NCBI GenBank assembly: GCA_028748975.1
Contig: JAQTPI010000002.1
Span: 1 to 49,212 of the forward strand
DNA length: 49,212 nt
Reading direction: 5' to 3'
DNA from: Patescibacteria group bacterium
GTDB lineage: Bacteria > Patescibacteriota > Patescibacteriia > UBA2196
Below the pieces are notes generated by a model. That model ran no database searches, was not told where the DNA came from, and worked only from the letters and a program-made list of their open reading frames with translations. Both the position numbers and the translations under genes were made by a program. Of the stretch, positions 1,150 through 43,227 are shown in pieces (positions within the stretch are counted from its first letter, which is position 1; each line of letters starts with the position of its first letter).

Positions 1150-3335
1150 TATTCAAAAACCCAGATCTTTCCGTTATTGATTTCGAAATATACTTTGGCA
1201 CTTTGTTTGGCGGCTGGAATAAGTTTTTTAAAATTGGTCCAATAATCGGCGAAGATGACAAAAACCGTGTCAACGCCGGTTATTTTTTTTGCCTCACTGA
1301 TAAATTCCGGCTTAATGCCCTGATAGGTAATATTTAAATAAATTTTGTATAGTGGGGAAGAGGTTGGTAGGGGATAATAAAAAGTTCCATTATAATATTT
1401 TTTAAAACCAAACTCTTGCAGGGCAGCGGCGGCGGTGGACTGGTTGGCCAGGACAAGATAGTTTTTATTAGCACTAAGGCCCTCAACAAGGCGCACGGCA
1501 GTCAAGTCATCAGCGGAGACGGCAAAACCTTTGTTTTTGATGATAGTATCGTAGCGCGGATAGACCAAGTATAAAATGGAAACAGCACAAAAAGCAGCGC
1601 CAATTAAAAGGAGAATAACTCCTTTTTTTGTTTTGATGGCGATTTCAAAAATGTAGGCCAGAGCGATTAAAACAAAAGGCAAAATGAAAAAATAGGCGGA
1701 GTGAACCAGGCGCAGGGGAAAAATATTTTGCTCGTAATTGATGACGGATTGAAAAGTAAAAAGTTTGAGTGCCAAAGCATTTATAAGTAGAATTAAAGAG
1801 GCGAGGATAAAAAATGATTTTGATGTTTTTTTGAACTTATAAAAACCAAAGATGGAAAGAATAATAACAAGCGGATAAAAAATTATTTTTAAAAGATAAA
1901 GTGAATGTAAAAAAGAATCAAAAGGAAGATAGAAAACGCTGTTTTTGGCAGAGATTAGAAGTTCGCGCAGATTTTGCCAATGGAAAGAAAGTTGAAAATT
2001 TGGGAGGATTAAGGAGGCGAGAAAAAAAGCGAGCGGAACGGCAACGATTGATAAAATTAATAGGATTAATAAAACTAATTTATTTTTTTGACGCAAGGAT
2101 AAAAAAAGACAAAAAGTTAGAGCGGAAATTCCGGCGAGAGGATGAATGAAGGTGATGGCCAGAGCGAGGAACCAGAGAAAGGGAGTGATTTTTTTATTGT
2201 CATTCCGAGGGAGCGAAGCGACCGAGGGAATCTCGGACGAGATCCCATCACCCCTCTCCGCCAACTGGCGGATCGGGGTTCGGGATGACATCCACGCAAA
2301 AGCAAAAAATACAAAACAGATAAGAAAAATATTTGCCAGATGCTGTGGAGTGGTGAAGAAGAAAGAAAAAAGAGTTAAGAGACCAGCGAAGACAGCGGAA
2401 AATTGGGCGGCGGATTTGGAAAAGTTATTTTTGACAAGGGTGAAGTAGGCGAGAGTCGGAATTAGAATTGAACCGAGTGCGGGAGCCAAAATTTTATCAA
2501 AAAAAGAAAAATTGATGGCAAAAAGTTTAGAAAAAATTATCACCAGAGAATATTGTCCGATGTAATAGGGGGTTTTGGGGAGCACGACACCTTCCAGAGA
2601 AATTATTTTTTCGGCGGCGCGGTGGACAAAGGGATCAAAGCCATAGCCGATTTTATAAACCACAAGCGCCACGGCGCTGGAAAGCAAAATGTATAAAAAA
2701 ATTAAGGGACCGTTTTTATTTTCTGGATGCTTGATAATTTTGTAGAAAAGAACTAATGATAACAAAAAATAGACAACGAAAAAATAGGAGGGAATGACTT
2801 GCCAAGGACTGACGATGACGGAAGTGGAGCGGTGGAATATAAGTATTAAAAGCAATAGAAGCAATAAAAGTACTATAAGTAATGATGATAGTGAAAATTT
2901 TGGAAAGTGTATTTTTTGTTGATTGTTAATTGTTAATTGCTTACTGTTTATTAGAATCGTTGGTAAAAGCAAAATTATGGCGATGTTCCAATCATGAAGG
3001 CCGATGAGGTAATAAAAAATTGAGCCGGTGATTATTAAATAGGTGCAAAGAAAGAGAAAGCCGAGGATTGGTTTAAAATAATCGTCATCCCGAGCGAAGC
3101 CCGCTTCGACCGCGAAGCGAGGCGAGCGATGGGATCTTTCGGATAAAGATTCCATCAGTCGTTCCGAATTTTCGGAACTCCTTCGGAATGACAATAAACC
3201 GCCAGTTTTAAAGGAAAAATAAAAAAGATAGGCAAGTCCAATGGGGACGCCAAGAAGCGGGCTTTTGAGCCATAAAACATTAATTACTGCGAGTATGGCT
3301 ACAAGAAATGATAATAAATGCTTGACAAATTTCAT
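1146..3335 (-). CDS. Large multi-pass membrane protein (possible GT-C-type glycosyltransferase) with two in-frame palindromic-element insertions
   Basis: 760-aa ORF; start moved to ATG at 3335 (MKFVKHLL); many hydrophobic segments and a GYGFDPFVH luminal motif; function inferred. Confidence 0.75.
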   Translation of the reverse strand: MKFVKHLLSFLVAILAVINVLWLKSPLLGVPIGLAYLFYFSFKTGGLLSFRRSSENSERLMESLSERSHRSPRFAVEAGFARDDDYFKPILGFLFLCTYLIITGSIFYYLIGLHDWNIAIILLLPTILINSKQLTINNQQKIHFPKFSLSSLLIVLLLLLLLLILIFHRSTSVIVSPWQVIPSYFFVVYFLLSLVLFYKIIKHPENKNGPLIFLYILLSSAVALVVYKIGYGFDPFVHRAAEKIISLEGVVLPKTPYYIGQYSLVIIFSKLFAINFSFFDKILAPALGSILIPTLAYFTLVKNNFSKSAAQFSAVFAGLLTLFSFFFTTPQHLANIFLICFVFFAFAWMSSRTPIRQLAERGDGISSEIPSVASLPRNDNKKITPFLWFLALAITFIHPLAGISALTFCLFLSLRQKNKLVLLILLILSIVAVPLAFFLASLILPNFQLSFHWQNLRELLISAKNSVFYLPFDSFLHSLYLLKIIFYPLVIILSIFGFYKFKKTSKSFFILASLILLINALALKLFTFQSVINYEQNIFPLRLVHSAYFFILPFVLIALAYIFEIAIKTKKGVILLLIGAAFCAVSILYLVYPRYDTIIKNKGFAVSADDLTAVRLVEGLSANKNYLVLANQSTAAAALQEFGFKKYYNGTFYYPLPTSSPLYKIYLNITYQGIKPEFISEAKKITGVDTVFVIFADYWTNFKKLIPAAKQSAKVYFEINNGKIWVFEY
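2198..2290. repeat. GTCAT...ATGAC element, 93 bp, in frame in the 1146-3335 CDS
   Basis: TGTCATTCCG...CGGGATGACA; translates as MSSRTPIRQLAERGDGISSEIPSVASLPRND. Confidence 0.9.
3083..3193. repeat. GTCAT...ATGAC element, 111 bp, in frame, with a nested 27-bp core (3100-3126)
   Basis: GTCATCCCGAG...CGGAATGAC. Confidence 0.9.
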
Positions 3336-3350
3336 AAGATGCGCTATACT
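3322..3350 (+). promoter_or_regulatory. Sigma70-type promoter of the 3406-4131 operon
   Basis: TTGACA (3322-3327), 17-bp spacer, TATACT (3345-3350). Confidence 0.7.
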
Positions 3351-3405
3351 TATAATACAAGAAAAATGGCTCTTTTTCAAATATGTTTGATAGGGGGACT
3401 GGAAG

Positions 3406-3618
3406 ATGAAGAAAGAGAGAAAAAACAAGAAGCAAAAAACGAGATGCCGCTATTGCAGAAAGAGTGGCGGCCGGATAAAGTACTACACAATTGCCGATGA
3501 TTTGGAAAACCCTAAACCATATCATCCCAAATGTAGGAAGAAGTTTAGATTAGAGGTTTTACAACAATTATGTTTAAACGATTTAGAGTGGAATAAGGCT
3601 GATAAAACAAACCATTAA
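3406..3618 (+). CDS. Small Cys/His-containing hypothetical protein (CxxC...HxxC, possible Zn finger)
   Basis: ORF downstream of the promoter, first of three co-oriented ORFs. Confidence 0.55.
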   Translation: MKKERKNKKQKTRCRYCRKSGGRIKYYTIADDLENPKPYHPKCRKKFRLEVLQQLCLNDLEWNKADKTNH

Positions 3619-3630
3619 ACAGGAGGCGGT

Positions 3631-3861
3631 ATGAAAAGAAACATGACGGTTGATATTAGGTTTGCGGAAGCTTGGAGGGGAGCCACAAAAGTTGTCATTC
3701 GTTCCGCTTTTGATGATTTTGTGGTTGTTATTCGCGGTCGATTTGAAGAAACAAAAAATAATTGCGATTTGGTAGAAGCAATTTTAAACAAGAATCAGAA
3801 TAGCAACGGAAAGCTTGCTACTGAAATCGCAAAGGGATTTAAAACTGAGATAGCGGGTTAA
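3631..3861 (+). CDS. Hypothetical protein, 76 aa
   Basis: AGGAGG at 3621-3626 before the ATG. Confidence 0.7.
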   Translation: MKRNMTVDIRFAEAWRGATKVVIRSAFDDFVVVIRGRFEETKNNCDLVEAILNKNQNSNGKLATEIAKGFKTEIAG

Positions 3862-3882
3862 ACCCAAACAGGAGGTGAAAAG

Positions 3883-4131
3883 ATGGGATATTTTTCAGCG
3901 ATGGACGGTTCGTTACACGTAGAAACGGAACCGATTCGAGGAAAGGGTGGTGAAGCCACCAGAACAAAAATAAAAATCACTGGCGACAAGTTGTATATTT
4001 GCGCGGAGATTGAGGGCTCTCCGTCGTGGCCAAAAATAAAAAAAGCTGTGGAGAATTTGGCCAAAAAAGGCCGGTTGGCTACCATGGATGTCGACCGGAG
4101 AATTGCCGAGGAACTGGAAAAACTCGGTTGA
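3883..4131 (+). CDS. Hypothetical protein, 82 aa
   Basis: AGGAGGTG SD at 3870; followed by a hairpin and U-tract. Confidence 0.72.
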   Translation: MGYFSAMDGSLHVETEPIRGKGGEATRTKIKITGDKLYICAEIEGSPSWPKIKKAVENLAKKGRLATMDVDRRIAEELEKLG

Positions 4132-4155
4132 AAATTTATTACGAGTAATTTAAAT

Positions 4156-4187
4156 GGGCTTGGCCAGCATTGGCAGGGCCCTTTTTT
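4156..4187 (+). terminator. Intrinsic terminator
   Basis: GGGC..GCCA/TGGC..GCCC hairpin followed by TTTTTT. Confidence 0.6.
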
Positions 4188-4216
4188 ATTTGGTTTTTTA
4201 GTGATAAGATTAAGAT

Positions 4217-5935
4217 ATGAATTGGTTTGAAAAAAATAAAGAAATTACCATCCTCGCTGTTGTGGGCGTGGTTTTCTTTTTGGTTTATTCTTTTTTGCCA
4301 TTGGCGCAGATGACACAAAGTCCAGTGCCAATGAGCGAAGTTTCCATGCGTTTTAATACGCCGGATGAAGTGACAAATAATTATTTTACTAATTTGTATG
4401 CTGACAGTGGCCAAATGTTTTATAAAGAGCCGTTGAATTTGCTGGTAGGTGGTATAATTTTTCCGCGCTGGGCCAGGACGATTGATGAGAAAATTACGCC
4501 TGGGACTTTTCAGGGCATAATTTTAATTTACGGCAATATTGCCAAAATTATCGGCCGAGCAACAATTCCTTTTTTAACCCCCTTTTTTGCCGCGCTCGGC
4601 GTGATATTTTTTTATCTTTTAGTAAAAGAATTTTGGGAAAAGAACGTGGCTTTTGTCTCCGCGCTTTTAATGTTTATTTTCCCGGGATTTTGGTATTATG
4701 CCTCGCGTACCATGTTTCATAACGTGTTATTTTTGGTGTGTCTTATTATAGGATTGTTTTTTTTAGTAAAATTAATAAAATCAAATAAAGATAGTGAAGA
4801 CGCGGAAGAACGCGGAATACTACGCGGAAGAACGCGGAAATTTCTAATAAGTATTTTTTGCGGGCTATTTTTTGGATTGGCGTTGATTACGAGAACTTCA
4901 GAGGTTGTTTGGATGGTTTTAATTGTTTTAATACTTTTAACTGTTTTAAAACCAAAGATAAAAGAATTTTGGCCATACGCGTTGATTAGTATTGTTATCT
5001 GCGCGTTGTGTTTTCTGCCCATACTTCATAATAATAAAATTTTTTATGGTTCGTATTTTTCTTTTGGTTATTCTTCTACTGTGACGACTGATTTGGAAGA
5101 TGTTTCTTCCGCGCGGCCAATTGGTCTGGTGCAAGCCCTGCTTTTACCATTTGGTTTCCATCCGATAATTATAGCTAAAGTTTTTTATAACTATATTTTG
5201 AAATTATTTTGGCCATGGCTGATCTTGTGGCTGGCAGGATTAATTTGGTTTTGGAAAAGCAAACCAAATAAAGAGCAAAAGTTATTTATTATTTCGTCGT
5301 TAGTTGTTAGTTGTTGGTTGATTGTTTATTATGGTTCCTGGAAGTTTTCTGATAATTTAGCCGGTTTCACAAGCATTGGTTCTTCCTATGTTAGATATTT
5401 TTTACCGGCTTTTGTTTTGGGTTTGCCTTTGGTGGCGTGGGGAATAGTAGAATTATCTAATAAGATCAATAAATTTGATAAAATCAATAAGAAAATCGTT
5501 TTTTGTTTATTGTTAATTGTTATTTGTTTATTGCCGTGTTTTAGTTATCGCCAGGTTTTTTGGAGCGGGCCCGAGGCGCTGATGGGCGTAAAAAATAGTT
5601 TGCTATCGTATCGCGAACAAGCGGCTGATGTTTTGAAAATTACCAAAGAAAATGATATTATTTTGGTTGATGTTTCGCAGGATAAAATTATTTTTCCGGA
5701 ACGGAAACACATAATCGTGCCGCAAGGCGGAGGCGAATTAAAACCAGTTAAAGCATTGTTAGAGATTACAAATGTTTGGTTTTTTTATCGTTCAGCCGAA
5801 GCAAACCCTGATTTTTTGAATGAGAAAAAATTTAAACCATATGGACTGGAGATTTATGACGGAAAGGAACTTAATGGCGGGGGAATGATTTTTAAAGTTA
5901 AGGAATTTGAAAGAAAACTCGGTGTGTCATCCTGA
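4217..5935 (+). CDS. ArnT/PMT-like (GT39/GT-C) membrane glycosyltransferase
   Basis: 572 aa polytopic protein, PDE motif after TM1, YVRYFLP motif; stop codon supplied by a repeat element. Confidence 0.78.
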   Translation: MNWFEKNKEITILAVVGVVFFLVYSFLPLAQMTQSPVPMSEVSMRFNTPDEVTNNYFTNLYADSGQMFYKEPLNLLVGGIIFPRWARTIDEKITPGTFQGIILIYGNIAKIIGRATIPFLTPFFAALGVIFFYLLVKEFWEKNVAFVSALLMFIFPGFWYYASRTMFHNVLFLVCLIIGLFFLVKLIKSNKDSEDAEERGILRGRTRKFLISIFCGLFFGLALITRTSEVVWMVLIVLILLTVLKPKIKEFWPYALISIVICALCFLPILHNNKIFYGSYFSFGYSSTVTTDLEDVSSARPIGLVQALLLPFGFHPIIIAKVFYNYILKLFWPWLILWLAGLIWFWKSKPNKEQKLFIISSLVVSCWLIVYYGSWKFSDNLAGFTSIGSSYVRYFLPAFVLGLPLVAWGIVELSNKINKFDKINKKIVFCLLLIVICLLPCFSYRQVFWSGPEALMGVKNSLLSYREQAADVLKITKENDIILVDVSQDKIIFPERKHIIVPQGGGELKPVKALLEITNVWFFYRSAEANPDFLNEKKFKPYGLEIYDGKELNGGGMIFKVKEFERKLGVSS

Positions 5936-6041
5936 GCGAAGGCCCCGTATCGCGGGGCTGAAGTCGAAGGATCCCTTAGACCTTTCAAATGAGAAAAGCG
6001 AAGGGATTCCTCGACTCCGCTTCGCTACGCTTGGAATGACA
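5925..6041. repeat. GTCAT...ATGAC element supplying the TGA of the upstream gene
   Basis: TGTCATCCTGAG...GGAATGACA. Confidence 0.9.
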
Positions 6042-6058
6042 AACATTATTTTTATTTT

Positions 6059-6637
6059 ATGAAATTGTGGAAAATAATTTTAATTCTTATAATTTTAGTC
6101 ACTTTCTGTTGGTTGTTTTATCTTGACTTCGTGCCGGGCAAAAATTTTTCAGTCAATTATAGTTTTTGCAAAAAAGAGGCCAAAGTGAGCGAATTGTCGC
6201 CGGGCGACCGACTTTTCCCAATTGAGAAATTTGATGGTTGGTGCCAGCAGAGAATTGCCGGAAGCCCGGTGTATTTTGACGTGCGAACGCCGCAATATTT
6301 TGACCGGGCGGTGGTGGAGGTTAAATATAAAAATCCAGCCGGACAAAAATTTCAGTTTGGGCCGCAAACGATTAAAAATGAATGGCAATGGCTTTTGATT
6401 GATATTAAAGAAATTGGGAAAGAAGGCGAATGGCAAATTGGCCGGGCGGAGTTTGATTTGCGCGGAGTTTATCAAAACTCGCCCATGATGCGCTGGCTGA
6501 TTTCCGCGCCGGAGATTGAAAAAGTTGGCCAGCCGATTATTATCAGTGAAATTAAAATTACTTTTGAAAAAGAGAAAGTTAATTTTGGCAATTTGGGCGA
6601 ACAGGTGAAAGATTATTTAAGAAAGATAGTTAGATAA
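6059..6637 (+). CDS. Hypothetical exported/membrane-anchored protein
   Basis: N-terminal hydrophobic anchor, 192 aa, in operon context. Confidence 0.78.
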   Translation: MKLWKIILILIILVTFCWLFYLDFVPGKNFSVNYSFCKKEAKVSELSPGDRLFPIEKFDGWCQQRIAGSPVYFDVRTPQYFDRAVVEVKYKNPAGQKFQFGPQTIKNEWQWLLIDIKEIGKEGEWQIGRAEFDLRGVYQNSPMMRWLISAPEIEKVGQPIIISEIKITFEKEKVNFGNLGEQVKDYLRKIVR

Positions 6638-6648
6638 TTTTTTAAAGT

Positions 6649-7362
6649 ATGAAAGTTAAAAAAATAAGTTTATACAAAAGATTGGATAAAAGAATAATTG
6701 GAGAATATTCTAGATTTAAGTTTGGGGACGAGAAAATGATTATAAAATATTCAAAAATGTTGGCAACTGTTATAAAAAAACAATTGAAAGATGGCAAAAA
6801 GTATATTATTTATACAACAAGTCAATCACCTTTAAACAAATATGTCAGACAAAGTTCTTTTGTTATGTCAGAGCGGGTTGCTAAATATTTAAACCTAAAA
6901 TTGATTGTTGGGCAATATAAATATTCATATAATAAGGAAACTTTTTATGATAATTCTGATGATTGGGAGCGGGATAATAGAAATATTCATAGACCACATC
7001 TAAATGGTAAAAAACAATTGCGCGGGGGTTATGATGTTTTGATGATAGATGATTCAATTGTGAGCGGAAGATCGCTGAAAGCTTCTGTTGATGAGCTGAA
7101 AAAAATCACAAAAAATGTAATGTTTTTTTCAATAATTAATTTAAAAAACAAGAGATATACCGAAGAAGAAGTGAATAATTTTTATTTTAAGAAAAAGGGA
7201 ATTATTTTTTTAAAAAGAATTCTTGAATCAAAGCATGCTTTTACAACTCAATTTATAAGAATTTTCGAAGAATTGGATTTGTATGAAAAGAAAATATTAT
7301 TAAAATCAATAAATAAAAACATAGCCGCCCAACTCAACAAAGCAATAAATATTTATGTCTAA
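6649..7362 (+). CDS. Type I phosphoribosyltransferase-like protein (AT-rich gene)
   Basis: VLMIDDSIVSGRSL matches the PRPP-binding motif of type I PRTases. Confidence 0.68.
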   Translation: MKVKKISLYKRLDKRIIGEYSRFKFGDEKMIIKYSKMLATVIKKQLKDGKKYIIYTTSQSPLNKYVRQSSFVMSERVAKYLNLKLIVGQYKYSYNKETFYDNSDDWERDNRNIHRPHLNGKKQLRGGYDVLMIDDSIVSGRSLKASVDELKKITKNVMFFSIINLKNKRYTEEEVNNFYFKKKGIIFLKRILESKHAFTTQFIRIFEELDLYEKKILLKSINKNIAAQLNKAINIYV

Positions 7363-7567
7363 ATTTATAAATAAAATTTTTATTGGTGGTTTGATTTTTT
7401 TTCTGGTATTTTTTGCTTTGGAGTTGGTGAAAGAAGGGTTTGTGTCAAATTATTTTGATTTAAATATAGTTTTATTAATTGTGGTTATTTTTGGTATAAT
7501 GAGTTTAATATTAAAAAGGTGTCATCCTGAGGACCCCGAGTACTCGGGGGACGAAGGATCTCACTAG
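7355..7567 (+). CDS. Small two-TM membrane protein; C-terminus derived from a palindromic element
   Basis: Overlaps the upstream stop; two hydrophobic helices; last ~15 aa (CHPEDPEYSGDEGSH) read from the element starting at 7520. Confidence 0.62.
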   Translation: MSKFINKIFIGGLIFFLVFFALELVKEGFVSNYFDLNIVLLIVVIFGIMSLILKRCHPEDPEYSGDEGSH

Positions 7568-7687
7568 TTGTCATCCCAGCGAAAGCTGGGATCCAGAAAA
7601 AACAACGACGTGGATTCCGGGTCAAGCCCGGAATGACAAACAGCTACGAGATTCCTCGGCCGATGCGTTATCGGCCTCGGAATGACA
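7520..7687. repeat. Nested GTCAT elements (inner dRS3-like element at 7569-7638)
   Basis: Two complete sets of TGTCAT...ATGACA termini, one inside the other. Confidence 0.9.
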
Positions 7688-7699
7688 ACCGCATAGTTT

Positions 7700-8113
7700 A
7701 TGGACAATTGTTTATTTTGCAAAATCATTGCCGGGGAAATTCCGGCCGAAAAGGTCTATGAAGATGAAAAAGTGCTGGCGATTTTGGATATTAAGCCGGT
7801 GAATCCCGGTGATGTTTTGATTATTACTAAAGAACACGCTGAAGATATGCTCGGCGCGAGCAAGGAAAACATTGAAGCAGCTATAATGGCGGCGCAAAAG
7901 ATGGGGCTGATTTTAAAGAAAGCACTTGGCGCTGGCGGAGTTAATATTCGCATTAATAATGGGGAGTTGGCCGAACAAATGATTAAACATGCCCATATTC
8001 ACGTTATTCCGCGTTTTGAAAACGATGGAAGAGTTGATTGGGTTGGGAAAGAATACGGCCCAGGCGAATTTGAAGCGATGGGAGAGAAAATACGGCAAGC
8101 ATTTAAGGAATAG
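7700..8113 (+). CDS. HIT family hydrolase
   Basis: CLFCKIIAGEIP start and HAHIHVIPR histidine triad. Confidence 0.93.
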   Translation: MDNCLFCKIIAGEIPAEKVYEDEKVLAILDIKPVNPGDVLIITKEHAEDMLGASKENIEAAIMAAQKMGLILKKALGAGGVNIRINNGELAEQMIKHAHIHVIPRFENDGRVDWVGKEYGPGEFEAMGEKIRQAFKE

Positions 8114-8213
8114 AAGTAATAAAAGTATTATAGTATTAAAAGTAAAAACGACCACAATCCGTGATCGTTTTTTATTACTATTATTACTTTTAATACTTTT
8201 ATTACTGTTATTG
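8109..8213. repeat. Inverted 9-mer array between the convergent HIT and PEGA genes
   Basis: (AATAAAAGT)n...(ACTTTTATT)n around AAAAACGA...TCGTTTTT. Confidence 0.7.
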
Positions 8214-9560
8214 TATCTGACTGACAAAGAAATTTTGTTCATCATTCAACCAATAAATTTTATCACCTTTTTCCGTGAGCCAGATTTGCTTGGCGGTTTT
8301 AAGCGCCGGTAAGTTGATGGTGTCGCGCGCGAAATTATTGGTGATTAATTCGGTGATAAAGAGTCCGTCAGAAGTTAAATATAAAAGATGGGTGGGCACG
8401 CCATACCACCAAAAGTTTTCAATTTTTGTACCGAGGCGGGCGATGAGTTGTTTGCGATTGTCTTCCACCAATCCTTCATAGGTCCAAATTTCATTATCAT
8501 TACCATAGATGAGGGGAGCGCTGTTGTTGTACCAGGAAATTTTATTAACATCATCAATGACAAGATTTTTTTCAGAAAATATTTTTTGTTTGATATCAAA
8601 AATATAAAGTTTATTCTTTTCTTTATCAATGATATTAACAATACCCGGCGGAGCTGGAAAAAAATTGTAGGCAGAGGAAAGGGGCAGATTGGCGGCCACA
8701 GCTTCGCTGCCAGAACCATTTTTAGAAGTAATCAAAAGTTCGGTTTGAGTATTGGTATTTTTTAGATAATAGATATTGTTTTCTCCAAGAGGCAGATAAA
8801 AATCAGCTATTTTGCCGGTGGTAATAAAAAGAGCTTGATTGGCAGTGACATCTATTTTTTCTAATCCCAAATTGGAGAGGGCATAAACCATTAAAGAATT
8901 ATCCGGGTCAAAAGCGATTTTTTGGCGACTGCTTTGAGAAGCGGGCAGTTGATATGTTTTGTCCGCGCCGAAAATATCCTGCGTTAAAAGCCGCCAGGCA
9001 CCATTATTTTTGAGAAGAAAATGGGTGCCATTGGAGTCGAGGATTAACGATTCCGGAGTAAAATTAATTAGGGTGATTTTTTTTAGAGAATCATTTTTTA
9101 GATTAAGCAGAAACAGTTCGGCACCAGTGTTTTTGTTGGTGGCAATAGCTATTTTATTTTCTGCCATTTCCGAGACGGCCGAAATTTTATCAGCCAATAT
9201 TTTTTCCGCGTTGATATTTTCTTTAAAAAGGCGGATGTATTGGGCAAAGGTTGTTTCGCCGGCATTAATTTTTAATTTTTTTGACCAGCTTAAATAGCCA
9301 TCTTTTTTAATTTCCACTTGATATTCACCGGGGAGAAGAGTTTTAATACGAGTGGTGGTTTGGTAAGATGTTTTTTCACTATTAAGATAGACGGTGGCTT
9401 TTTCCGGTTTGGATTCCAAAAATAAAACTCCGGCTTTTTGCCAGCCGAACTGACGCCAGTCAAATTTGTAGCCCTCGGCCAGTTTGAGCACGATGGGGGC
9501 AGAAGCAAAAAAGATTAAAAAGAAGACAAGATAGAGAAGGCGGCGGTGGGTTAGAGTCAT
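8208..9560 (-). CDS. PEGA-domain membrane-anchored protein
   Basis: N-terminal TM then PEGA-like LESKPEKATVYLN...LLPGEYQVEIKKDGY; start moved to ATG at 9560. Confidence 0.83.
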   Translation of the reverse strand: MTLTHRRLLYLVFFLIFFASAPIVLKLAEGYKFDWRQFGWQKAGVLFLESKPEKATVYLNSEKTSYQTTTRIKTLLPGEYQVEIKKDGYLSWSKKLKINAGETTFAQYIRLFKENINAEKILADKISAVSEMAENKIAIATNKNTGAELFLLNLKNDSLKKITLINFTPESLILDSNGTHFLLKNNGAWRLLTQDIFGADKTYQLPASQSSRQKIAFDPDNSLMVYALSNLGLEKIDVTANQALFITTGKIADFYLPLGENNIYYLKNTNTQTELLITSKNGSGSEAVAANLPLSSAYNFFPAPPGIVNIIDKEKNKLYIFDIKQKIFSEKNLVIDDVNKISWYNNSAPLIYGNDNEIWTYEGLVEDNRKQLIARLGTKIENFWWYGVPTHLLYLTSDGLFITELITNNFARDTINLPALKTAKQIWLTEKGDKIYWLNDEQNFFVSQIQ

Positions 9561-9747
9561 AAGAGTGAAATTTTCAATTTCCCAGCTTCGCCCGCGAAGC
9601 GAGGCGAGCAATTTTCAATTTTTAATAATCAATTAATTTGGCTTTTTGTGGGGGCGGAGAAATATTGGAGTACAGACAAATTTTAGCTCTTTTCAATTAA
9701 AAAATCAAACTTTTGTTTTTTAATTAGAGGTGGTATAATAAGGGGGT

Positions 9748-11091
9748 ATGAATTTTCCACAACTACGGAAACAAGATATAAACGCCGAAGATAAGAGGCG
9801 GTTTTTTAAAAAAGCGCTATTTTTTGTGCTGGCAATTGTTTTGGCCGTGGCGATTTTTTTGGCGGGCAAGGATATCGGGCAAAATCATAATAAAAATTCA
9901 GTAACGGGAGATGAAACACAAAACGTGGAATTGGGAGTAGTTAATGGCAAAAGTCAAAAATTACCAGATTGGGTCAAGGGTGATATTGATTTTGAACAAT
10001 TTTGGGCTGTGTGGAATAAAATTCAAACGGAATTTGTGGATAAACCCGTGCCGGAGAAAAAACTTTTTTATGGAGCGCTGATGGGATTGGTAGCTTCGCT
10101 TGGCGACCCTTATTCAATTTTTATGGAGCCGCAGGAGTCCAAAGATTTTCAGCAGGAATTAAAAGGCAGTTTTGAAGGCATTGGCGCGGAAATCGCGGTA
10201 AAAAATAATCAACTGACGGTTGTTTCGCCTTTGGTGGAATCACCGGCGGAAAAAGCCGGTCTGAAAGCGGGCGATAAAATTTTATATATTAATGATTTGA
10301 ACACGGCAGGATTAGATGTTAATGAGGCGGTGGCGAAAATCCGCGGCCCCAAAGGCACGCAAGTGACTTTGACTATTTGGCGCGACAATGAACCGAAAGA
10401 AAGAAAAATTACCATTACTCGAGATACTATTAAAATTGTTTCCGCTTCTTGGAAAATGGAAGAAAAAACGGTAACTAAAACCGTACAAAAAGACGGCCAG
10501 CCAGTGGAAGAAAAAGTAACTGAAAAAGTGGCGGTCATCAAGCTTTCTAATTTTAATGAAGACACTAACAGCCGACTAATAAAAGTTATTAATGAGATTT
10601 TGACTTCTGATGTTAGGGGAATTATTTTGGATTTACGCGGCAATCCTGGCGGATACATTGATCAGGCGATTGAGGTGGCTTCACACTGGCTGCCAGCCGG
10701 ACAAACCGTGGTTTCGGAAAGATTTGCCGATGATAAAAAACAGCAACACTTGGCCAGTGGCAAGGCGGAGTTGAAAGATTATAAGACAGTGGTTTTGATT
10801 AATGGCGGATCAGCTTCGGCTTCGGAAATCGTAGCGGGGGCGTTTCAGGATCATAAAATTGCCACAATTATTGGTGAACAAAGTTTTGGCAAGGGTTCAG
10901 TGCAAAATTTGGAAGATTATGCGGATGGTTCGGCCGTGAAATTAACCGTGGCGCGCTGGCTCACTCCCAACGGCACCACGATTGATAAACAGGGGATTAC
11001 ACCGGATATTAAAGTGGAATTGACGGAAGATGATTTTAATAATAATAAGGATCCGCAAATGGAGAAGGCGATGGAACTTCTAACGAAGTAA
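9748..11091 (+). CDS. ctpA: S41 family carboxyl-terminal processing protease
   Basis: PDZ domain (FEGIGAEI), DLRGNPGG, SASASEI catalytic Ser, GKGSVQ. Confidence 0.93.
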   Translation: MNFPQLRKQDINAEDKRRFFKKALFFVLAIVLAVAIFLAGKDIGQNHNKNSVTGDETQNVELGVVNGKSQKLPDWVKGDIDFEQFWAVWNKIQTEFVDKPVPEKKLFYGALMGLVASLGDPYSIFMEPQESKDFQQELKGSFEGIGAEIAVKNNQLTVVSPLVESPAEKAGLKAGDKILYINDLNTAGLDVNEAVAKIRGPKGTQVTLTIWRDNEPKERKITITRDTIKIVSASWKMEEKTVTKTVQKDGQPVEEKVTEKVAVIKLSNFNEDTNSRLIKVINEILTSDVRGIILDLRGNPGGYIDQAIEVASHWLPAGQTVVSERFADDKKQQHLASGKAELKDYKTVVLINGGSASASEIVAGAFQDHKIATIIGEQSFGKGSVQNLEDYADGSAVKLTVARWLTPNGTTIDKQGITPDIKVELTEDDFNNNKDPQMEKAMELLTK

Positions 11092-32624: not shown

Positions 32625-33914
32625 ATGAAAAAATTTGTTATAGAAAAAATCACCGCTCGTGAAATTCTTGATTCGCGCGGCAACCCGACAGTGGAAACCA
32701 CGGTGATTTTGGATTGCGGAATTAAGACTAAAGCCTCGGTGCCTTCCGGCGCTTCCACTGGGGAGCATGAAGCGTTTGAATTGCGCGATAATGACAAAAA
32801 AAGATACGGCGGATTGGGAGTTTTGAAAGCGTGCGCCAGCGTGGAAAAAATCAGCCGTAAATTAAAAGGCATGAATATTTTGGAGCAGAAAAAAATTGAC
32901 GAAGCCATGATTGAACTTGATGGTACGGATAATAAATCTAAATTCGGCGCCAACGCAATCTTATCAGTATCATTGGCTTGCGCCCGCGCCGGAGCACTGG
33001 TGGCGGGAGTAGAACTTTATGAATATTTGCGGAAGATTTACGAATTACGAATTACGAATTACGAATTACCAATCCCAATGTTCAACATTTTTAACGGCGG
33101 CAAACACGCGGACACAAATTTGAATTTGCAGGAATTCATGATCGTGCCGATTGGCCTTAAGAATTTTTCCGAGCAACTTCGCGCGGGGGCGGAAATTTTT
33201 CATGCTTTGGGCGAGGTCTTGAAAAAAAACCATCTGGATACTGATGTGGGCAATGAGGGTGGTTACGCGCCAAACATTGATAACACTATGCAGGCGTTTG
33301 ATTTAATTATGGAAGCGATTGTAAAGGCCGGCTATAAACCTGGCGCGGAAGTGGCACTGGCGCTGGATGTGGGCGCTTCGGAATTATATGATGAAGAAAA
33401 ACGGCTTTATACTTTTGATTTAGATGATTATTATCTTATGGCTTCGCAATTAATTTCCCTTTATCGCGATTGGGCGACAAAATATCCGATTATTTCCATT
33501 GAAGACGGGCTCGCGGAAAATTCTTGGGAAGATTGGGAGGAATTGACCAAAGAATTTGCGCGTTTCAAACCGCACGCCAGTTTTGATAAAATGTTACTCG
33601 TGGGCGATGATTTTTTTACTACCAATGCCAAACGGCTGGAAGCCGGCGTAAAAAGAAGCGCGGGCAACGCGGTAATTTTGAAACCAAACCAGATTGGGAC
33701 TTTGTCAGAGGCGATTGAGTTTGCCAAAGTTGCCAGAGAAAATAATTATACGATTGTGGTGAGCCACCGTTCCGGTGAAACCTGCGATGATTTTATTGCG
33801 GATTTGGCGGTGGCGATTAGTTCTGAGTTTGTAAAATTCGGGTCGCTGTCGAGGGGGGAGAGGGTAACGAAGTATAATCGGCTGTTGGAGATTTTTTCAG
33901 TAGTGTTATTCTGA
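32625..33914 (+). CDS. eno: Enolase
   Basis: REILDSRGNPTVE, VPSGASTG, ILKPNQIG, SHRSGET; stop supplied by an element half. Confidence 0.97.
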   Translation: MKKFVIEKITAREILDSRGNPTVETTVILDCGIKTKASVPSGASTGEHEAFELRDNDKKRYGGLGVLKACASVEKISRKLKGMNILEQKKIDEAMIELDGTDNKSKFGANAILSVSLACARAGALVAGVELYEYLRKIYELRITNYELPIPMFNIFNGGKHADTNLNLQEFMIVPIGLKNFSEQLRAGAEIFHALGEVLKKNHLDTDVGNEGGYAPNIDNTMQAFDLIMEAIVKAGYKPGAEVALALDVGASELYDEEKRLYTFDLDDYYLMASQLISLYRDWATKYPIISIEDGLAENSWEDWEELTKEFARFKPHASFDKMLLVGDDFFTTNAKRLEAGVKRSAGNAVILKPNQIGTLSEAIEFAKVARENNYTIVVSHRSGETCDDFIADLAVAISSEFVKFGSLSRGERVTKYNRLLEIFSVVLF

Positions 33915-34046
33915 TCCGCCGGCTAGCGGAGAAGGATTTCGGAAAAAATCAAATAGAATAATTCAATAATCTAATAAAAATATTTTCGCCGCCAGGCGAT
34001 TTTATTTTTTCTATAAATATCACGATCGTGGTATACGTGGAAAAAT

Positions 34047-34088
34047 AAAATTATACAAAACGTGCGACCGTACGTTTTGTATAATTTT
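34047..34088. repeat. AT-rich inverted repeat with 17-bp arms
   Basis: AAAATTATACAAAACGT-GCGACCGT-ACGTTTTGTATAATTTT. Confidence 0.8.
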
Positions 34089-34156
34089 TATAAAATAAAT
34101 AATAAAATAAAAAGCCGCCGAGCGCGAAGCGCTCGGCGGAGGTGTTATAAACGTGA

Positions 34157-34648
34157 TCAACTGTATTCCGGGTGGAAGATGTATCCGAAATGTGGAAATT
34201 TGATTGCTTTTTCCACAATCGCTTCTTTCCACCATTCCAGATTGTCGCTTTCCCGTCCTTCTTTGACCCAATGGTTATGGATGATTAAAAACATGTTGAC
34301 TGTCCGGAAACAATTGAGAGTCGCTTCCAGAGCAATAACCATCTTTTTGTGCCCCTTTTTACGCTGGAAAACAATTTCTTGCTCCAGCGTCGCTATCTTC
34401 CCTTTAACCAGGAAGGGCGATCCCTTTACCGGCGCGATGTATTTTTCCACCACCGCATGGACGATTAATTTTTCATCGTCCGAAAGAACCGGTTCGGATT
34501 TTTGGCCGGCACGCGAGTGGGCGAGAATCAATATCTCCGTTTCCATGTTGCTTTTTTCGCGTTCCATCTTTTGTGACGCTACGATGCCCAGATTTTTCGG
34601 CAGTTTATCTTTTACTGCCGCAAATGCTTCGGCCAGATCTCCGGCCAT
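34157..34648 (-). CDS. Hypothetical protein, 163 aa
   Basis: AAGGAGG SD; downstream GC-rich hairpin at ~34113-34140. Confidence 0.75.
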   Translation of the reverse strand: MAGDLAEAFAAVKDKLPKNLGIVASQKMEREKSNMETEILILAHSRAGQKSEPVLSDDEKLIVHAVVEKYIAPVKGSPFLVKGKIATLEQEIVFQRKKGHKKMVIALEATLNCFRTVNMFLIIHNHWVKEGRESDNLEWWKEAIVEKAIKFPHFGYIFHPEYS

Positions 34649-34663
34649 GGTTTTTCCTCCTTT

Positions 34664-34837
34664 TTATTCGGTTTCATGGTTTGGTGAAGTTTCTTGGGCG
34701 ATGAGATACAACATGTTAAATTCATCGCTGCCTGGTTGGGGTTGTGCCGTTTCCGGCTGTTGTTCAACCACTTCTCGCATTTTAGGCGGAAGCTTGTCAG
34801 AGACTTTTTGCAGAGCTTCAGCTAGAGCTGAATTCAT
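34664..34837 (-). CDS. Small protein, 57 aa (not in ORF track)
   Basis: TAAGGAG SD; MNSALAEALQKVSDKLPP resembles the N-terminus of the next gene; promoter at 34916-34889. Confidence 0.62.
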   Translation of the reverse strand: MNSALAEALQKVSDKLPPKMREVVEQQPETAQPQPGSDEFNMLYLIAQETSPNHETE

Positions 34838-35000
34838 GATTTTCTCCTTAATTTAGATGATTTTAGGTTTAAAAGAACCAATTAATTCATTATAGCAAAA
34901 CCACAGATTTTGTCAAGTGGATAACTTTTATGATATTTTTTTGGATTTTCTATTTTCATTTGAGCGTGCTATAATTAAAGGAAGAAAATAACACAAAATT

Positions 35001-38625: not shown

Positions 38626-38831
38626 TGTCATTCTGATCCGCCCTAGGCGGAGAAGAATCTCGTAATTTTATAGAACAGATATATAGAACAGATATAGGGA
38701 TATAAAGACATAAAGAAATACATAAACAAAGCCTTTTATATCCTTATTTCCTTATATCTTTATTATTTACCTTTTCAGTCACGAGATCCTTCACTTCGTC
38801 CCGAATACCCGGGACTTCGTTCAGGATGACA
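38626..38831. repeat. GTCAT...ATGAC element with an AT-rich 9-mer array in its spacer
   Basis: TGTCATTCTGA...GAATCT left arm; AGATCCTTCA...TCAGGATGACA right arm. Confidence 0.8.
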
Positions 38832-38843
38832 ATCATAAAGAAT

Positions 38844-40376
38844 ATGCTTAAAAAAATCGTTACTTTTCTCTTGTTTTTATATATTTTCTTGTTTTTACCG
38901 TTGCCCACGCAGGCGGCGGTAAATTTAGTTCGGACGCCGAGCAATACGGCGGTGTATTTTGTGGATGCCAGTAACGTTCGCCATGCTTTTCCCAACCAAA
39001 AAATTTACGAAAGTTGGTTTGGTAATGATTTCAAAAAAATTAGTTTTGTTTCGGAAGAAGCTTTGGCAAAACTGCCTTTGGGTAAAAACGTGGTTTTGAA
39101 AGCGGGAAAATATTTAGTAAAAATTCCTTCGGCCCCAGATGTTTACGCGGTGGAACCGGGCGGAACCTTGCGGCATATTGAAAGCGCGGAAGCGATGGAA
39201 ACAATTTATGGAAAGAATTGGCAACAAAAATTGATTGATTTGTCGGAAGTTTTTTTTGACGATTATGTTTTGGGCGCGCCGATTAAATTCGGCCATCAGA
39301 TTCCTGACGGCGTGGTTTATAAACTTATTAATAAAAATAATTATTACTACAAAACAGCCGGTCATTTGCAGAAATTTGCTTCTTGGCAGGATGTTTTGGC
39401 TAATGGCTATAATCAAAACGATGTGGTGGAAAACATTACTAGTTTCTTTTTGCACGGCGCGGAAATCGAGGGTTATGATGAAAATATTAATAATTTAGCG
39501 GCAGAAAATAATCTGGCCAGATATGATTGTGAGAATAAAAATTTAAGAGCCGCTTTTATTTTTGTTTATGACGGCACGTATAATTTGGAAGAAGTGGAAA
39601 AAATGAAAGCCATTAAAAATCGATTGCCGGAATATTTTAATTGGACGACGGACGGCTTGTCGCAATTAACTTTGGATAATGATATTTTTTTGATAAAAAA
39701 AGAAAATTATCATATTTTTGAGAGTAAATTGAGTTTGTCGCAGCTGGCTTTTGATTTTTATAAGCAACATTCCGATGTTTATGATTTTCTTTTCATTTTT
39801 GATAATTTCAGCGAGCCAAGCAAAATTATCGCCGAATATTATGCCGTGACCAACCAAATTGCCGGCATTCAAAAGCCGATTCTGAAAGCCGAAGTGCAGT
39901 ATGGCAGTTTGGGAAAATTAAAAGGCGTGATAAAAATGTTTAGTGTTAACAGCCATCTTTTCGGCAGTGACAGCGAACAAAATATCACCCTTAACAACAT
40001 AATTCATGAAATGCTTCACCAGTGGAGCGGGGTGTTTACTTTTTTGAATGATAAAAAAGAAGAAGATACTTCGTTGTATAATGAAAAACTCAAACATTGG
40101 TCAAATTATGTTAATTTTGTATCTCCCTTAGGCGGTTATGGCTGGAGGGATAACGGTGACGGTACTTTCACACAAACTTATGTGAACCAGAAAATTAAAC
40201 TTTCTAATTTGGATTTGTATGGCATGGGGCTTTTGCCACAGCGCGGCATTGGCGAAATTTTTTATATCGTGCCGGAGAATTCTTTAATCACCGATACAAT
40301 TTCTGCCAAAAAAGTTGTGGTCAGCGCGGATAGTTTGGTTAAGGCGATGGGGAAGTGGCAATGTTTGGTAAAATAA
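38844..40376 (+). CDS. Secreted protein with a putative zinc-metalloprotease domain
   Basis: Signal peptide (..PTQA), CPR-type N-terminal repeat region (VYFV..RHAF), IIHEMLHQW HEXXH motif. Confidence 0.72.
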   Translation: MLKKIVTFLLFLYIFLFLPLPTQAAVNLVRTPSNTAVYFVDASNVRHAFPNQKIYESWFGNDFKKISFVSEEALAKLPLGKNVVLKAGKYLVKIPSAPDVYAVEPGGTLRHIESAEAMETIYGKNWQQKLIDLSEVFFDDYVLGAPIKFGHQIPDGVVYKLINKNNYYYKTAGHLQKFASWQDVLANGYNQNDVVENITSFFLHGAEIEGYDENINNLAAENNLARYDCENKNLRAAFIFVYDGTYNLEEVEKMKAIKNRLPEYFNWTTDGLSQLTLDNDIFLIKKENYHIFESKLSLSQLAFDFYKQHSDVYDFLFIFDNFSEPSKIIAEYYAVTNQIAGIQKPILKAEVQYGSLGKLKGVIKMFSVNSHLFGSDSEQNITLNNIIHEMLHQWSGVFTFLNDKKEEDTSLYNEKLKHWSNYVNFVSPLGGYGWRDNGDGTFTQTYVNQKIKLSNLDLYGMGLLPQRGIGEIFYIVPENSLITDTISAKKVVVSADSLVKAMGKWQCLVK

Positions 40377-40917: not shown

Positions 40918-41808
40918 ATGCCTGAATTACCCGAAGTAGAAACAATTAAACTGGAATTAAACAAGGTTTTAAGGAATAAAAAAATTAAAGCCGTGGTTTT
41001 GAATTTGCCCAAGCAAGTTCATGGCGACAGAAAGAAGTTTTTGAAAGTCGTTGTTGGCGCGAAAATTAAGGCGGTGGGACGGCGGGCTAAGACTTTAATT
41101 ATTACTCTAAAAAATAAAAAATATTTAATATTTCATTTGAAAATGACCGGGCAACTTATTTATCAGGGAAATCGGGGAGATCAGGGAGATCAGGGAGATC
41201 AGGGAGGAAAACTTTATGGCGGCGGGCATCCGATTAAGCAAGACTTAAAAAATTTACCAAACAAATTTTCGCACGTGATTTTTAATTTCAGCGATGGCTC
41301 GCATTTATTTTTTAATGACACGCGCCAATTCGGCTGGGTAAAATTGGTTGAGGAAAAAGAATTGGCTAATATGAGTGCCGAATACGGGCCAGAACCTTTG
41401 GAGAAAAATTTTACGCCTGAATATTTCAGTGATTTTTTAGCACGGCGAGCCACGGCCATTAAACCGCTTTTGATGGAACAAAAATTTATTGCCGGCCTTG
41501 GCAATATTTATGCCGCCGAAGCCTGTTTTTGCGCCGGAATTTCTCCCAAGCGCTCTGCTAATAAAATAAAACCAAAGGAAATAAAAAAACTTTATAATTG
41601 CATTAAAAAAATTTTAAAGCTGGCCATTGCCAAAAAAGGCACTTCCGCTGACAATTATGTTGACGCTTTCGGCCGGCAAGGTAATATGATAAACTACTTG
41701 AAAGTCTATGGACGGAAAGGGAAAAAATGTTTCCGCTGTGGCGCGCTTTTGCATGAAATCCGCCAGGGTTCCCGCGCCACGGTTTTTTGCGGGAAGTGTC
41801 AGAAATAA
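40918..41808 (+). CDS. mutM: Formamidopyrimidine-DNA glycosylase
   Basis: MPELPEVET, HLKMTG, GLGNIYAAE, C-terminal CxxC...CxxC zinc finger. Confidence 0.96.
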   Translation: MPELPEVETIKLELNKVLRNKKIKAVVLNLPKQVHGDRKKFLKVVVGAKIKAVGRRAKTLIITLKNKKYLIFHLKMTGQLIYQGNRGDQGDQGDQGGKLYGGGHPIKQDLKNLPNKFSHVIFNFSDGSHLFFNDTRQFGWVKLVEEKELANMSAEYGPEPLEKNFTPEYFSDFLARRATAIKPLLMEQKFIAGLGNIYAAEACFCAGISPKRSANKIKPKEIKKLYNCIKKILKLAIAKKGTSADNYVDAFGRQGNMINYLKVYGRKGKKCFRCGALLHEIRQGSRATVFCGKCQK

Positions 41809-41860: not shown

Positions 41861-42175
41861 TTATCTATGAAAGAGGAAAATAGAAAACTTTTTAAGTATA
41901 AACGAAGAAAACCTGTATTTGAGAGGCAAAACATACACAGTTGTTGACCAGTTGTTTACTTTTGCTTTAGACGAGGGGTTATCTTCTCGATTTAAATGAT
42001 GAAGTATTTGGCAAATGGTATAGTGAATATCGGGTGTTTGTCGTAATGTACAGAAAAGTGTTTCCCCGACCGATAATGGCCGTTCGCTGTTTAAGAGGAA
42101 ACCCCCGCGTTCAGAGGGACTGAACCAAAGACCTTTCCAACGCCATTTTTGTGGTTGAATTACATATTTGTACAT
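41861..42175 (-). CDS. Hypothetical protein, 104 aa
   Basis: GGGGAGGTG SD; promoter TTGACA-17-TATAAT (42292-42264). Confidence 0.62.
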   Translation of the reverse strand: MYKYVIQPQKWRWKGLWFSPSERGGFLLNSERPLSVGETLFCTLRQTPDIHYTICQILHHLNREDNPSSKAKVNNWSTTVYVLPLKYRFSSFILKKFSIFLFHR

Positions 42176-42303
42176 CTTTCACCTCCCCTTATTTTGTTGT
42201 TTTTTGGTCTAAATAAGCCAGATTTGGTTGGTCGTTTGTGGATAAATTTTATTATCTATTTCAATTATAGCATGTTTATTTTTTTGTGTCAAATGTCCGT
42301 TGG

Positions 42304-42427
42304 TTATCCCCTCCTTTCGAAGGAGGGGTGCGAGCCAGCAGGCGAGTGGGGTGGTTGTGGTTTGTATTTTTTTACAACCCCTCCGTTCCGTTGCTACGGA
42401 ACACCTCCCCTTCGAAAGGGGAGGATA
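42304..42427. repeat. Pair of CCCCTCC-family elements
   Basis: 42304-42356 and 42374-42427, near-identical to the 27295-27410 units. Confidence 0.85.
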
Positions 42428-42492
42428 ATCGCGGTGTAATTCGCGTAAATTTGTGTTCATATTTGTGTAGATTTGTGTGTAAAACTTTTATT

Positions 42493-43227
42493 ATGTTAGA
42501 ACGCCTGCAAAAAATTTTAGCTCGTCAGGGGATTGCTTCTCGCCGCGGGGCGGAGGAGCTGATTTTGGCTGGAAAAATTAAGGTGAATGGCAGGATAGCA
42601 AAAATAGGAGAAAAATATGATGAGGAAGAGGATGAAATTGAGGTGGATGGGAAGAAGCTAATGAAAAATGAAAAACGAAAAATGAAAAATAATGGAAATT
42701 CAAATTTTGTATACTATTTACTTAATAAGCCACGCGGTTATGAATGTTCTTTGGTAGCTCGCCACGGCGATAAATTGGCAGTGGATTTGGTGCCGAAATT
42801 TCCCAGAGTTTGGACGGTTGGCCGGCTGGATAAAAATAGCCGCGGACTACTCATTTTAACTAATGACGGCAAACTGACTGAAGAATTGACGCACCCGAAA
42901 TTTGAACACGAAAAAGAATATGAAGTATTGGTGAATAAACCATTGACTAATGATTTTTTTCGCCGAATGCAAAAAGGCGTGGCACTTTCCGAAGGGTTGG
43001 CGCGCGCCGACAAAATCCGCCAGCTCGGAGATAAGAAATTTTCTTTAACTTTGCATCAGGGCTGGAAAAGGCAGATTAGAAGAATGTGCGAAAGTTTGGG
43101 GTATCGGACGATTGATTTGGTGAGGGTGAGGGTGGGGAAGTGGAGGCTTGGAAATTTACGCGAAGGTAAGTTTCGCAAGATTAATGGGTGTCATCCTGAG
43201 GAGCGAGAGCGACGAAGGATCTCGTAG
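42493..43227 (+). CDS. RsuA/RluB family rRNA pseudouridine synthase
   Basis: S4 domain ERLQKILARQGIASRR, LNKPRG, GRLDKNSRGLL (catalytic Asp), RQIRRMC; start moved to ATG at 42493. Confidence 0.93.
   Translation: MLERLQKILARQGIASRRGAEELILAGKIKVNGRIAKIGEKYDEEEDEIEVDGKKLMKNEKRKMKNNGNSNFVYYLLNKPRGYECSLVARHGDKLAVDLVPKFPRVWTVGRLDKNSRGLLILTNDGKLTEELTHPKFEHEKEYEVLVNKPLTNDFFRRMQKGVALSEGLARADKIRQLGDKKFSLTLHQGWKRQIRRMCESLGYRTIDLVRVRVGKWRLGNLREGKFRKINGCHPEERERRRIS

Follow-up and report, generated by a model that had tools for sequence, protein, structure and literature searches.

Among described bacterial repeats, the closest to those considered here are the Ssn-related motifs (SRMs), which, with the Neisseria NTS (CGTCATTCCCGCGMAVGCGGGAATCYRG, an oriented superset of dRS3), flank ssnA-type genes (PMC11893778). 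The gene ssnA encodes a GIY-YIG protein of 94 aa, and the motif lies nearby in 71 % of homologues and on both sides in 42 % (PMC11893778). SsnA binds the NTS hairpin solely as single-stranded DNA (ssDNA), cutting just upstream of it, is inactive on double-stranded DNA, RNA and the opposite strand, shows no RNA binding and reduces transformation by NTS-bearing DNA; it was hypothesized that a domesticated NTS-ssnA-NTS element mobilizes the repeats (PMC11893778). The same hairpins, including dRS3 and Rickettsia RPE-4 and RPE-6, have been classed as CGTC-tagged repetitive extragenic palindromes (REPs) with no enzyme known, and have in-frame intragenic copies encoding 20–30 aa; this CGTC superfamily was reported without a RAYT, whereas RAYT-linked REPs bear a GTAG tag (PMC3733652). 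Arrays of dRS3-RS-dRS3 (NIME) had been taken to be Neisseria-specific (Bentley et al., 2007, PMC1797815). Here we describe a dispersed family of GTCAT...ATGAC hairpin elements in a 49,212 nt stretch (hereafter the window) of a Patescibacteria group bacterium of UBA2196 (contig JAQTPI010000002.1, assembly GCA_028748975.1), which belongs to this repeat class and whose copies differ in presence between relatives and lie in part in frame within genes.

The likeness to SRM/NTS comprises a (C/T)GTCAT head, a palindromic stem initiated by AT and a C after the palindrome; we also enter as likenesses the hundreds of copies per genome and the motif-ssn-motif gene order in other bacteria, with hairpins on both sides of 40 % of genes here versus the 42 % published. 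Differences lie in the host, Patescibacteria being a group unmentioned in PMC11893778, in the mostly long composite form of the window units, with no ssn gene in the window, and in 4 of the 15 window loci being fully intragenic, compared with 2 % in N. meningitidis. With the CGTC-tagged REPs, the short form of the unit shares a TGTC/CGTC head, an 8–9 bp stem starting from AT, a 4–5 nt loop and a CCA tail, and the family shares a preference for inverted dimers (8 of the 15 window loci) and the occurrence of in-frame intragenic copies, whereas the long form departs in stem and loop size (a 5-bp foot, a GA/GA loop and an inner hairpin). NIMEs likewise place two inverted hairpins around a variable spacer and vary in array copy number between strains, but the window holds isolated dimers, not long arrays, and the exact dRS3 core ATTCCC-N8-GGGAAT occurs 0 times in the window versus 79 in the GIY-YIG loci L121–L200. 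REPIN/RAYT systems offer the parallels of an enzyme gene that is single-copy and vertically inherited, with its own hairpin repeats on either side, of inverted dimers as the likely mobile unit and of an enzyme recognizing ssDNA hairpins; they differ in using an HUH tyrosine transposase rather than a GIY-YIG hydrolase, and a GTAG rather than a YGTC head. Rickettsia RPE-1 also consists of palindromic repeats in frame in protein genes, tolerated as extra peptide, yet it is longer (about 100–150 bp) and unrelated in sequence, and we know of no nuclease linked to it. A literature search by unit sequence string gave chance primer matches only.

Structure, abundance and insertion of the hairpin units

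In the window, the string GTCATYCYGAG (≤ 1 mismatch) was matched 20 times against 0.94 expected, a number reached in 0 of 100 shuffles, and complete long-form units (head, 6–36 nt interior, tail RDRGRATYY) were found 15 times against 0.02 expected. Curation by reading the sequence gave 25 hairpin units at 15 loci, comprising eight head-out dimers (one with a nested inner dimer) and seven solo units, which together occupy 1,281 bases (2.6 % of the window). The SRM search sequence, HGTCWYN(0-2)YYVSBRHN(0-5)WNVSBRGN(0-2)RNCYNB, was matched by the short-form units at 7569–7596 and 20843–20871, with 0.13 matches expected from shuffles. Every copy listed in the original prediction exists, most of them starting 1 base higher than had been given, and the consensus proposed there, GTCATYCYGAG...CTCRGRATGAC, holds.

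Every unit is directional, with a (C/T)GTC head, a stem starting with AT and a TC(C/T) tail, and the extended head (C/T)GTCAT is present in 21 of the 25. In all 21 GTCAT-headed units, the palindrome is preceded by YGTC and followed by C, as it is in 113 distinct units adjoining GIY-YIG genes. The window units fall into two structural forms. The short form (7570–7596, 7611–7637 and 20844–20871) has an 8-bp stem and a 4–5 nt loop, as in unit 7570–7596 with stem ATCCCAGC, loop GAAA and tail CCAG; the long composite form is built from a foot of 5 bp (ATYCY/RGRAT), the conserved internal loop GAG...CGA (GA/GA) and an inner hairpin that varies. In a dimer, one unit is joined through a spacer to a second unit in reverse complement, both heads facing outward. 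As a single strand, the long dimers (folding z-scores of −3.9 to −5.2) are predicted to adopt a four-way fold made up of an outer stem from the termini, a central hairpin from the inner ends and two side arms, and the short dimer is predicted to form two separate hairpins; solo long units are unstable alone, with z about 0. In 8 of 8 full copies, a pyrimidine adjoins the element on its left and a purine on its right, and these flanks extend the palindrome; no direct repeat flanks any of the eight, and a classical, DDE-derived miniature inverted-repeat transposable element was rejected on this lack of a target-site duplication.

Three units (20722, 29411 and 15843 on the − strand) have a long-form body with a GTAGTTTAT or GTGGTTTAT head instead of GTCAT (GTAG in two, GTGG in one), so that a body of CGTC type bears the tag of the other REP superfamily, the one linked to RAYT; unit 32570–32613 has the same inner hairpin as these three (CGGCCTTT..GAGCC). 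Outside the window, in L128 (upstream of its GIY-YIG gene) and at 3876–4008 of L107, some units are nested in the loop of another; such arrangements are intermediate between the short form and the long. Partial heads or tails stand in tandem beside complete units in L136, L149, L152, L133, L126, L077 and L229, each consisting of the outer flank, GTCAT and a half stem in 2–4 repeats; they look as if they arose by recurrent breakage or slippage at the hairpin apex.

The copies were next compared with those of relatives. The gene for a 729-aa membrane protein (1146–3335, − strand) holds two long-form head-out dimers in frame, at 2199–2289 (units 2199–2236, +, and 2237–2289, −) and 3084–3192 (units 3084–3140, +, and 3144–3192, −). 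The insert encoded by the latter, SFRRSSENSERLMESLSERSHRSPRFAVEAGFARDD, is missing from all 11 aligned orthologues, whilst that encoded by the former, SSRTPIRQLAERGDGISSEIPSVASLPRND, is missing from most of the 11, two of which have another insert in its place. Unit-encoded peptides occur at other sites in several of these orthologues (VIPSEAGDL, VIPTPHLRGKDL and CHPERMERSGVSRRIL; the DNA was checked for two). Furthermore, a Patescibacteria locus also from UBA2196, L203, is colinear with window positions 58–17047 and contains 0 units, its orthologous spacers measuring 10 and 13 nt versus elements of 115 and 166 nt in the window; the 10-nt spacer is the orthologue of the 5926–6040 site and has no unit in it. 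Relatives at 48–69 % protein identity differ at every unit site. By these alignments, which take in the 729-aa protein and window positions 58–17047, the window copies are insertions relative to the syntenic relative and the orthologous proteins; the copy in the phosphoglycerate kinase (PGK) gene is of another kind (see below).

In the three landfill metagenomes that contain the window, in which the genome itself stands at 4–13×, the short hairpin at 7611–7641 reaches a summed word depth of 5,000–9,600×; it is found on 150–230 contigs (all contigs mapped to 7480–7720), and the loose ends shown differ in their flanks. Among the long-form copies, which have diverged from each other, word depth stands at just 2–3× the genome level.

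Linkage to a small GIY-YIG nuclease in other bacteria

A scan for long-form units in one genome per species gave at least 120 loci in at least 15 phyla, among the matches listed Bacteroidota, Chloroflexota, Acidobacteriota, Verrucomicrobiota, Planctomycetota, Nitrospirota, Cyanobacteria, Proteobacteria, Chlorobiota, Gemmatimonadota and Patescibacteria. The repeat family is pan-bacterial and not specific to the candidate phyla radiation (CPR), across whose genomes the original prediction had proposed to look for a flanked gene family. We examined 127 small open reading frames (ORFs) adjoining long-form units at these loci, and among the matches listed GIY-YIG was the sole recurrent enzyme-like family. 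ORFs of ∼95 aa of this family lie among units in three of the at least 120 loci, in one of them (L090) between a left and a right unit. ORFs between distant head and tail pairs were also considered as enzyme candidates and dropped as too noisy.

As an unbiased test of linkage, 80 metagenome loci were chosen by GIY-YIG protein similarity alone and searched for a strict hairpin, defined as GTCA(T/C) plus a perfect stem, at ≤ 150 nt from the gene. Such a hairpin was present upstream at 37 of 70 loci (53 %; median distance 17 nt), downstream at 49 of 72 (68 %; median distance 10 nt) and on both sides at 25 of 62 (40 %), whereas background density would lead one to expect ∼0.023 per side. Among matches selected on GTC-AT-N16-AT-C alone, all six inner pairs were complementary in 115 of 150, with 18 different stems, and so the hairpin has been kept through compensatory changes. 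The linkage extends to the long form: a GIY-YIG subfamily typified by L077, 47 % identical to the short-form type, has GTCATTCAGAG..GAAGAATCT upstream of its gene and AGATTCTTCAG..CTGAATGAC right after the stop codon, and six further loci with long-form flanked GIY-YIG genes were found in Algibacter, Winogradskyella, Salegentibacter, Flavivirga and a Bacteroidota metagenome-assembled genome (MAG). Arrays adjoining long-form GIY-YIG genes vary in copy number between strains (L228 versus L229, and L234 versus L235). The association of these repeats with GIY-YIG is itself already published (Chenal et al., Nat Commun 2025, PMC11893778), the hairpins having been classed earlier by Di Nocera et al. 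(2013, PMC3733652).

The protein matches the GIY-YIG domain (Pfam PF01541, E = 6.7e-18), and Tyr7, Tyr18, Arg28, His32, Glu65 and Asn84 are invariant in the family. Its structural model has a pLDDT of 95, with UPF0213 protein BH0048 and Slx1 as the nearest solved folds, and on the strength of the domain match, these residues and the model the enzyme looks active. The family comprises 8,397 clusters at 50 % identity (E ≤ 1e-10). The cluster taxa looked up were Cloacimonadota, Actinomycetota, Margulisbacteria, Planctomycetota and Kapaibacterium (Bacteroidota), with no CPR among them; Alphaproteobacteria were added by the homologue search. Ssn proteins ≥ 90 % identical come from MAGs with different labels, one Cloacimonadota and the other Actinomycetota, and so reflect either a horizontal transfer of recent date or erroneous binning. 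Some ssn elements (L090, L190 and L154) are bracketed by a duplicated host gene end; in L090 this is a 46-nt duplication (3290–3340 versus 3700–3750), so that on one side the target gene is made whole again. Such duplications are not obviously explained by simple cut-and-paste.

Proposed mechanism and competing explanations

Taken as a whole, we consider it probable that the window elements are SRMs, of one class with the Neisseria NTS/dRS3, the CGTC/TGTC-tagged REPs and Rickettsia RPE-4/6, and that they work as follows. The hairpin would be bound as ssDNA by a single-domain GIY-YIG nuclease of ∼95 aa (Ssn) and cut a few bases upstream of the head. The enzyme gene, where present in other genomes, occupies the position of the dimer's spacer; in this genome, a matching Ssn would be encoded outside the window. 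Ssn may cut ssDNA on both strands at the outer ends of a dimer, after which host repair or template switching could copy the repeats, as proposed for RAYT on REPINs, and the system may act on incoming ssDNA, as in Neisseria. The window copies are non-autonomous: no transposase, HUH, nuclease or GIY-YIG domain was found in any window ORF, as the original prediction had anticipated when it attributed their spread to a trans-acting nuclease or transposase of, for example, HUH/RAYT or GIY-YIG type. The search for an associated enzyme family that it had called for led to GIY-YIG, whose genes are flanked by these termini in other bacteria and whose member Ssn binds and cuts such hairpins; the HUH/RAYT option found no support. 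An enzyme family is thus linked to the repeats, but their actual spreading by Ssn is a hypothesis even in the literature.

A number of observations weigh against this explanation. None of the 15 long-form units matches the SRM search sequence, with which they have head and tail in common around an interior of 6–60 nt; the long composite motif escapes the published pattern, and genome counts made with that pattern are therefore underestimates. The GIY-YIG gene is absent from the window and from the ORFs adjoining its copies, was not found in ∼80 kb of Patescibacteria DNA (L057, L107 and L201–L205) and has left no pseudogene remnants detectable by tblastn in the window and the CPR loci. Transposition of the enzyme gene was sought as identical Ssn proteins in several genomic contexts and rejected, as each lies at one fixed locus per species; the gene thus does not behave as a multi-copy insertion sequence and more nearly resembles a domesticated RAYT. 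To our knowledge, GIY-YIG enzymes have no strand-transfer chemistry. Mobilization by Ssn is hypothetical in the published work too (PMC11893778). As for the empty-site polymorphism raised in the original prediction, presence/absence differences were seen between relatives, in the orthologues and L203, but no empty-site variants were recovered from the three source metagenomes, where the Logan contigs searched break at repeats, show no clean deletions and, as contig data, drop rare variants.

Three other explanations were weighed. Palindromic repeats in inverted dimers would also suit REP/REPIN elements served by a RAYT (an HUH Y1 transposase) encoded elsewhere, and the GTAG or GTGG start of three units (20722, 15843 on the − strand and 29411) is like the RAYT-linked REP tag; however, 21 of the 25 units have the (C/T)GTCAT head of the CGTC superfamily, reported without RAYT, no Y1 transposase (Y1_Tnp) is present in the window, and GIY-YIG is the sole recurrent flanked enzyme-like ORF among the 200 loci listed. 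We regard a RAYT as highly improbable. The probability that the elements are primarily selected RNA elements, such as inter-cistronic stabilizers or terminator-like structures, rather than mobile DNA is low, even though copies lie 4–9 nt past stop codons and 11–18 nt before starts in same-direction gene runs, the dimers fold well (z-scores as above) and many REPs have been argued to be transcribed (Di Nocera et al., PMC3733652). An Rfam search of the whole window gave no relevant match at E ≤ 1; the orientation of solo units relative to flanking genes was not strongly biased (24 co-oriented versus 18 opposed); and copies lie within genes and at differing sites in relatives. In addition, the instability of solo long units alone and the absence of RNA binding by SsnA (PMC11893778) speak against such a role, which would nevertheless be compatible with the elements being SRMs and does not exclude it. 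A hammerhead-like or kink-turn-like reading of the tandem G-A motif CYGAG...CGAR was dropped because the CUGANGA core is missing from most copies, and a tRNA scan of the window gave nothing relevant.

The repeats might instead be relics, the lineage having once had Ssn or having gained the repeats by recombination, with no enzyme acting on them now. This is in line with the lack of an ssn gene in the ∼130 kb of Patescibacteria DNA examined, with the mutual divergence and modest word depth (just 2–3× the genome level) of the long-form copies and with the 19 % of repeat-rich genomes that have no Ssn homologue (PMC11893778). On the other hand, the units are dense (2.6 % of the window), with hairpins and heads intact, relatives at 48–69 % protein identity differ at every site, and thousands of identical copies of the short-form hairpin exist in the same community, all of which makes a relic state unlikely in our view.

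Effects on coding sequence and other features of the window

The window ORFs are housekeeping genes, including those for glycosyltransferases, CTP synthase, ribosomal proteins L9 and L27, NifU, NifS, pilus ATPase and platform proteins, an FeFe hydrogenase, PGK, enolase, two iPGM copies, Fpg, SecDF and a sigma factor. Intergenic copies sit in tiny spacers between same-direction genes, at the distances from stops and starts given above, whilst 4 of the 15 loci (three dimers and one solo unit) are fully intragenic with the frame kept. Besides the two dimers in the 729-aa protein gene, a long-form dimer at 30162–30243 encodes RHSEGGPMNIGPTDGISVEDPIASLGMT within the gene for a 196-aa membrane protein (29858–30448, +). 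Of the six frames, 3–4 are free of stops in intragenic dimers versus 0–1 in intergenic dimers, and all three intragenic dimers are 3n+1 bases long, or 3n once the flanking Y and R are counted. These in-frame copies are most likely translated as extra loops. The solo long-form unit at 31519–31553 (−), within the PGK gene (31170–32450), differs from such inserted copies: the stretch that it encodes, DEIPSLATLARDDG, is aligned to GDEVKAAVDRLNEGD in PDB entry 1php with no net length gained, the unit replacing a native surface segment.

Five further copies touch coding sequence, supplying two stop codons, one start and two C-terminal tails. The long-form dimer at 5926–6040, which has ATCCCTT-type inner ends, gives a TGA stop to gene 4217–5935, and a diverged solo unit at 33904–33945 (+; GTGTTATTCTGAT...GAAGGATTTCGG) does the same for the enolase gene (32625–33914). 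The start is supplied by the long-form dimer at 38627–38830, with a 123-nt AT-rich centre, whose ATGAC end gives the ATG of gene 38826–40376. At 7521–7686, a composite of outer long-form units (7521–7561, +, and 7649–7686, −) around a short-form dimer (7570–7596, +, and 7611–7637, −; inner pair 7570–7637) extends ORF 7355–7567 by 15 codons, and a solo long-form unit at 43190–43222 (+), followed by an AT-rich hairpin module, extends the pseudouridine synthase gene (42286–43227) by the tail CHPEERERRRIS. An AT-rich sequence of ∼45 nt (TAAATAATAAAGATATAAGGAAATAAGGATATAAAAGGCT) forming an imperfect hairpin is common to 38661–38783 and 43226–43321, each time after a long-form unit, which suggests a longer shared module on the inner side of the unit.

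The remaining loci lie close to genes. The shortest long-form dimer (15062–15132) separates the NifU_N gene (14672–15055) from the NifU-C gene, whose real start is at ∼15148, and a long-form dimer with an expanded left arm (32455–32613) takes up the gap between the PGK gene and that for enolase. Solo long-form units with a GTAGTTTAT head are found just upstream of the NifS gene, which starts at 15857 (15800–15843, −), and 5 nt past the stop of 20373–20717 (20722–20772, +), and one with a GTGGTTTAT head lies 4 nt past the stop of the FeFe-hydrogenase gene 27416–29407 (29411–29461, +). The solo short-form unit (20844–20871, +) has the 8-bp stem ATCCCGGG, loop CTTGA and tail CCAG.

What is new here is the Patescibacteria host, the long composite form, the in-frame and codon-supplying copies and the unit-free syntenic relative; the intragenic copies, the two structural forms and the spread outside the CPR had been missed by the original prediction. 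The repeats create or extend ORFs and place inserts of 28–36 residues in real proteins, and gene callers and homology tools would mis-handle them unless they were masked as SRMs. The window also contains type IV pilus/competence-type genes (PilB-like, 19002–20216; PilC-like, 17108–17884; and a weak ComF-like phosphoribosyltransferase, 6649–7362), which would make a nuclease system acting on ssDNA relevant to DNA uptake. As a speculation that we hold to be rather doubtful, SRM-type repeats could be a routine source of protein change in Patescibacteria, the long 'cloverleaf' dimers having their own Ssn lineage and being carried in frame and translated, with Ssn policing imported ssDNA. If so, this would account for lineage-specific loops in membrane proteins, and even for the replaced surface segment of PGK, in cells that are obligately DNA-scavenging.

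Several smaller features were also noted. The window genes 6649–7362, whose ComF-like match is below the Pfam cut-off, and 13437–14009, specifying a 190-aa protein with a PaaX-type Cas2-like domain, are without counterpart in the colinear UBA2196 region. Between enolase and the first iPGM gene, ∼1 kb (33915–35000) holds no convincing gene, only ORFs on both strands without a Pfam match, and GC skew falls locally across it. Finally, short tandem arrays occur within genes at 16105–16133, 28017–28045, 31981–32010, 32333–32356, 31260–31297, 33038–33073 and 41162–41206. The heptamer GAAATCA, in ∼4 copies, occurs in the genes for NifS and hydrogenase and at two places in that for PGK, encoding peptides that resemble EIRNQKS, whilst AAACAAC is repeated five times in PGK, TTACGAA five times in enolase and a 9-mer five times in Fpg, giving GDQGDQGDQ. 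Unrelated to the hairpin units, these arrays provide in-frame inserts by a second route.

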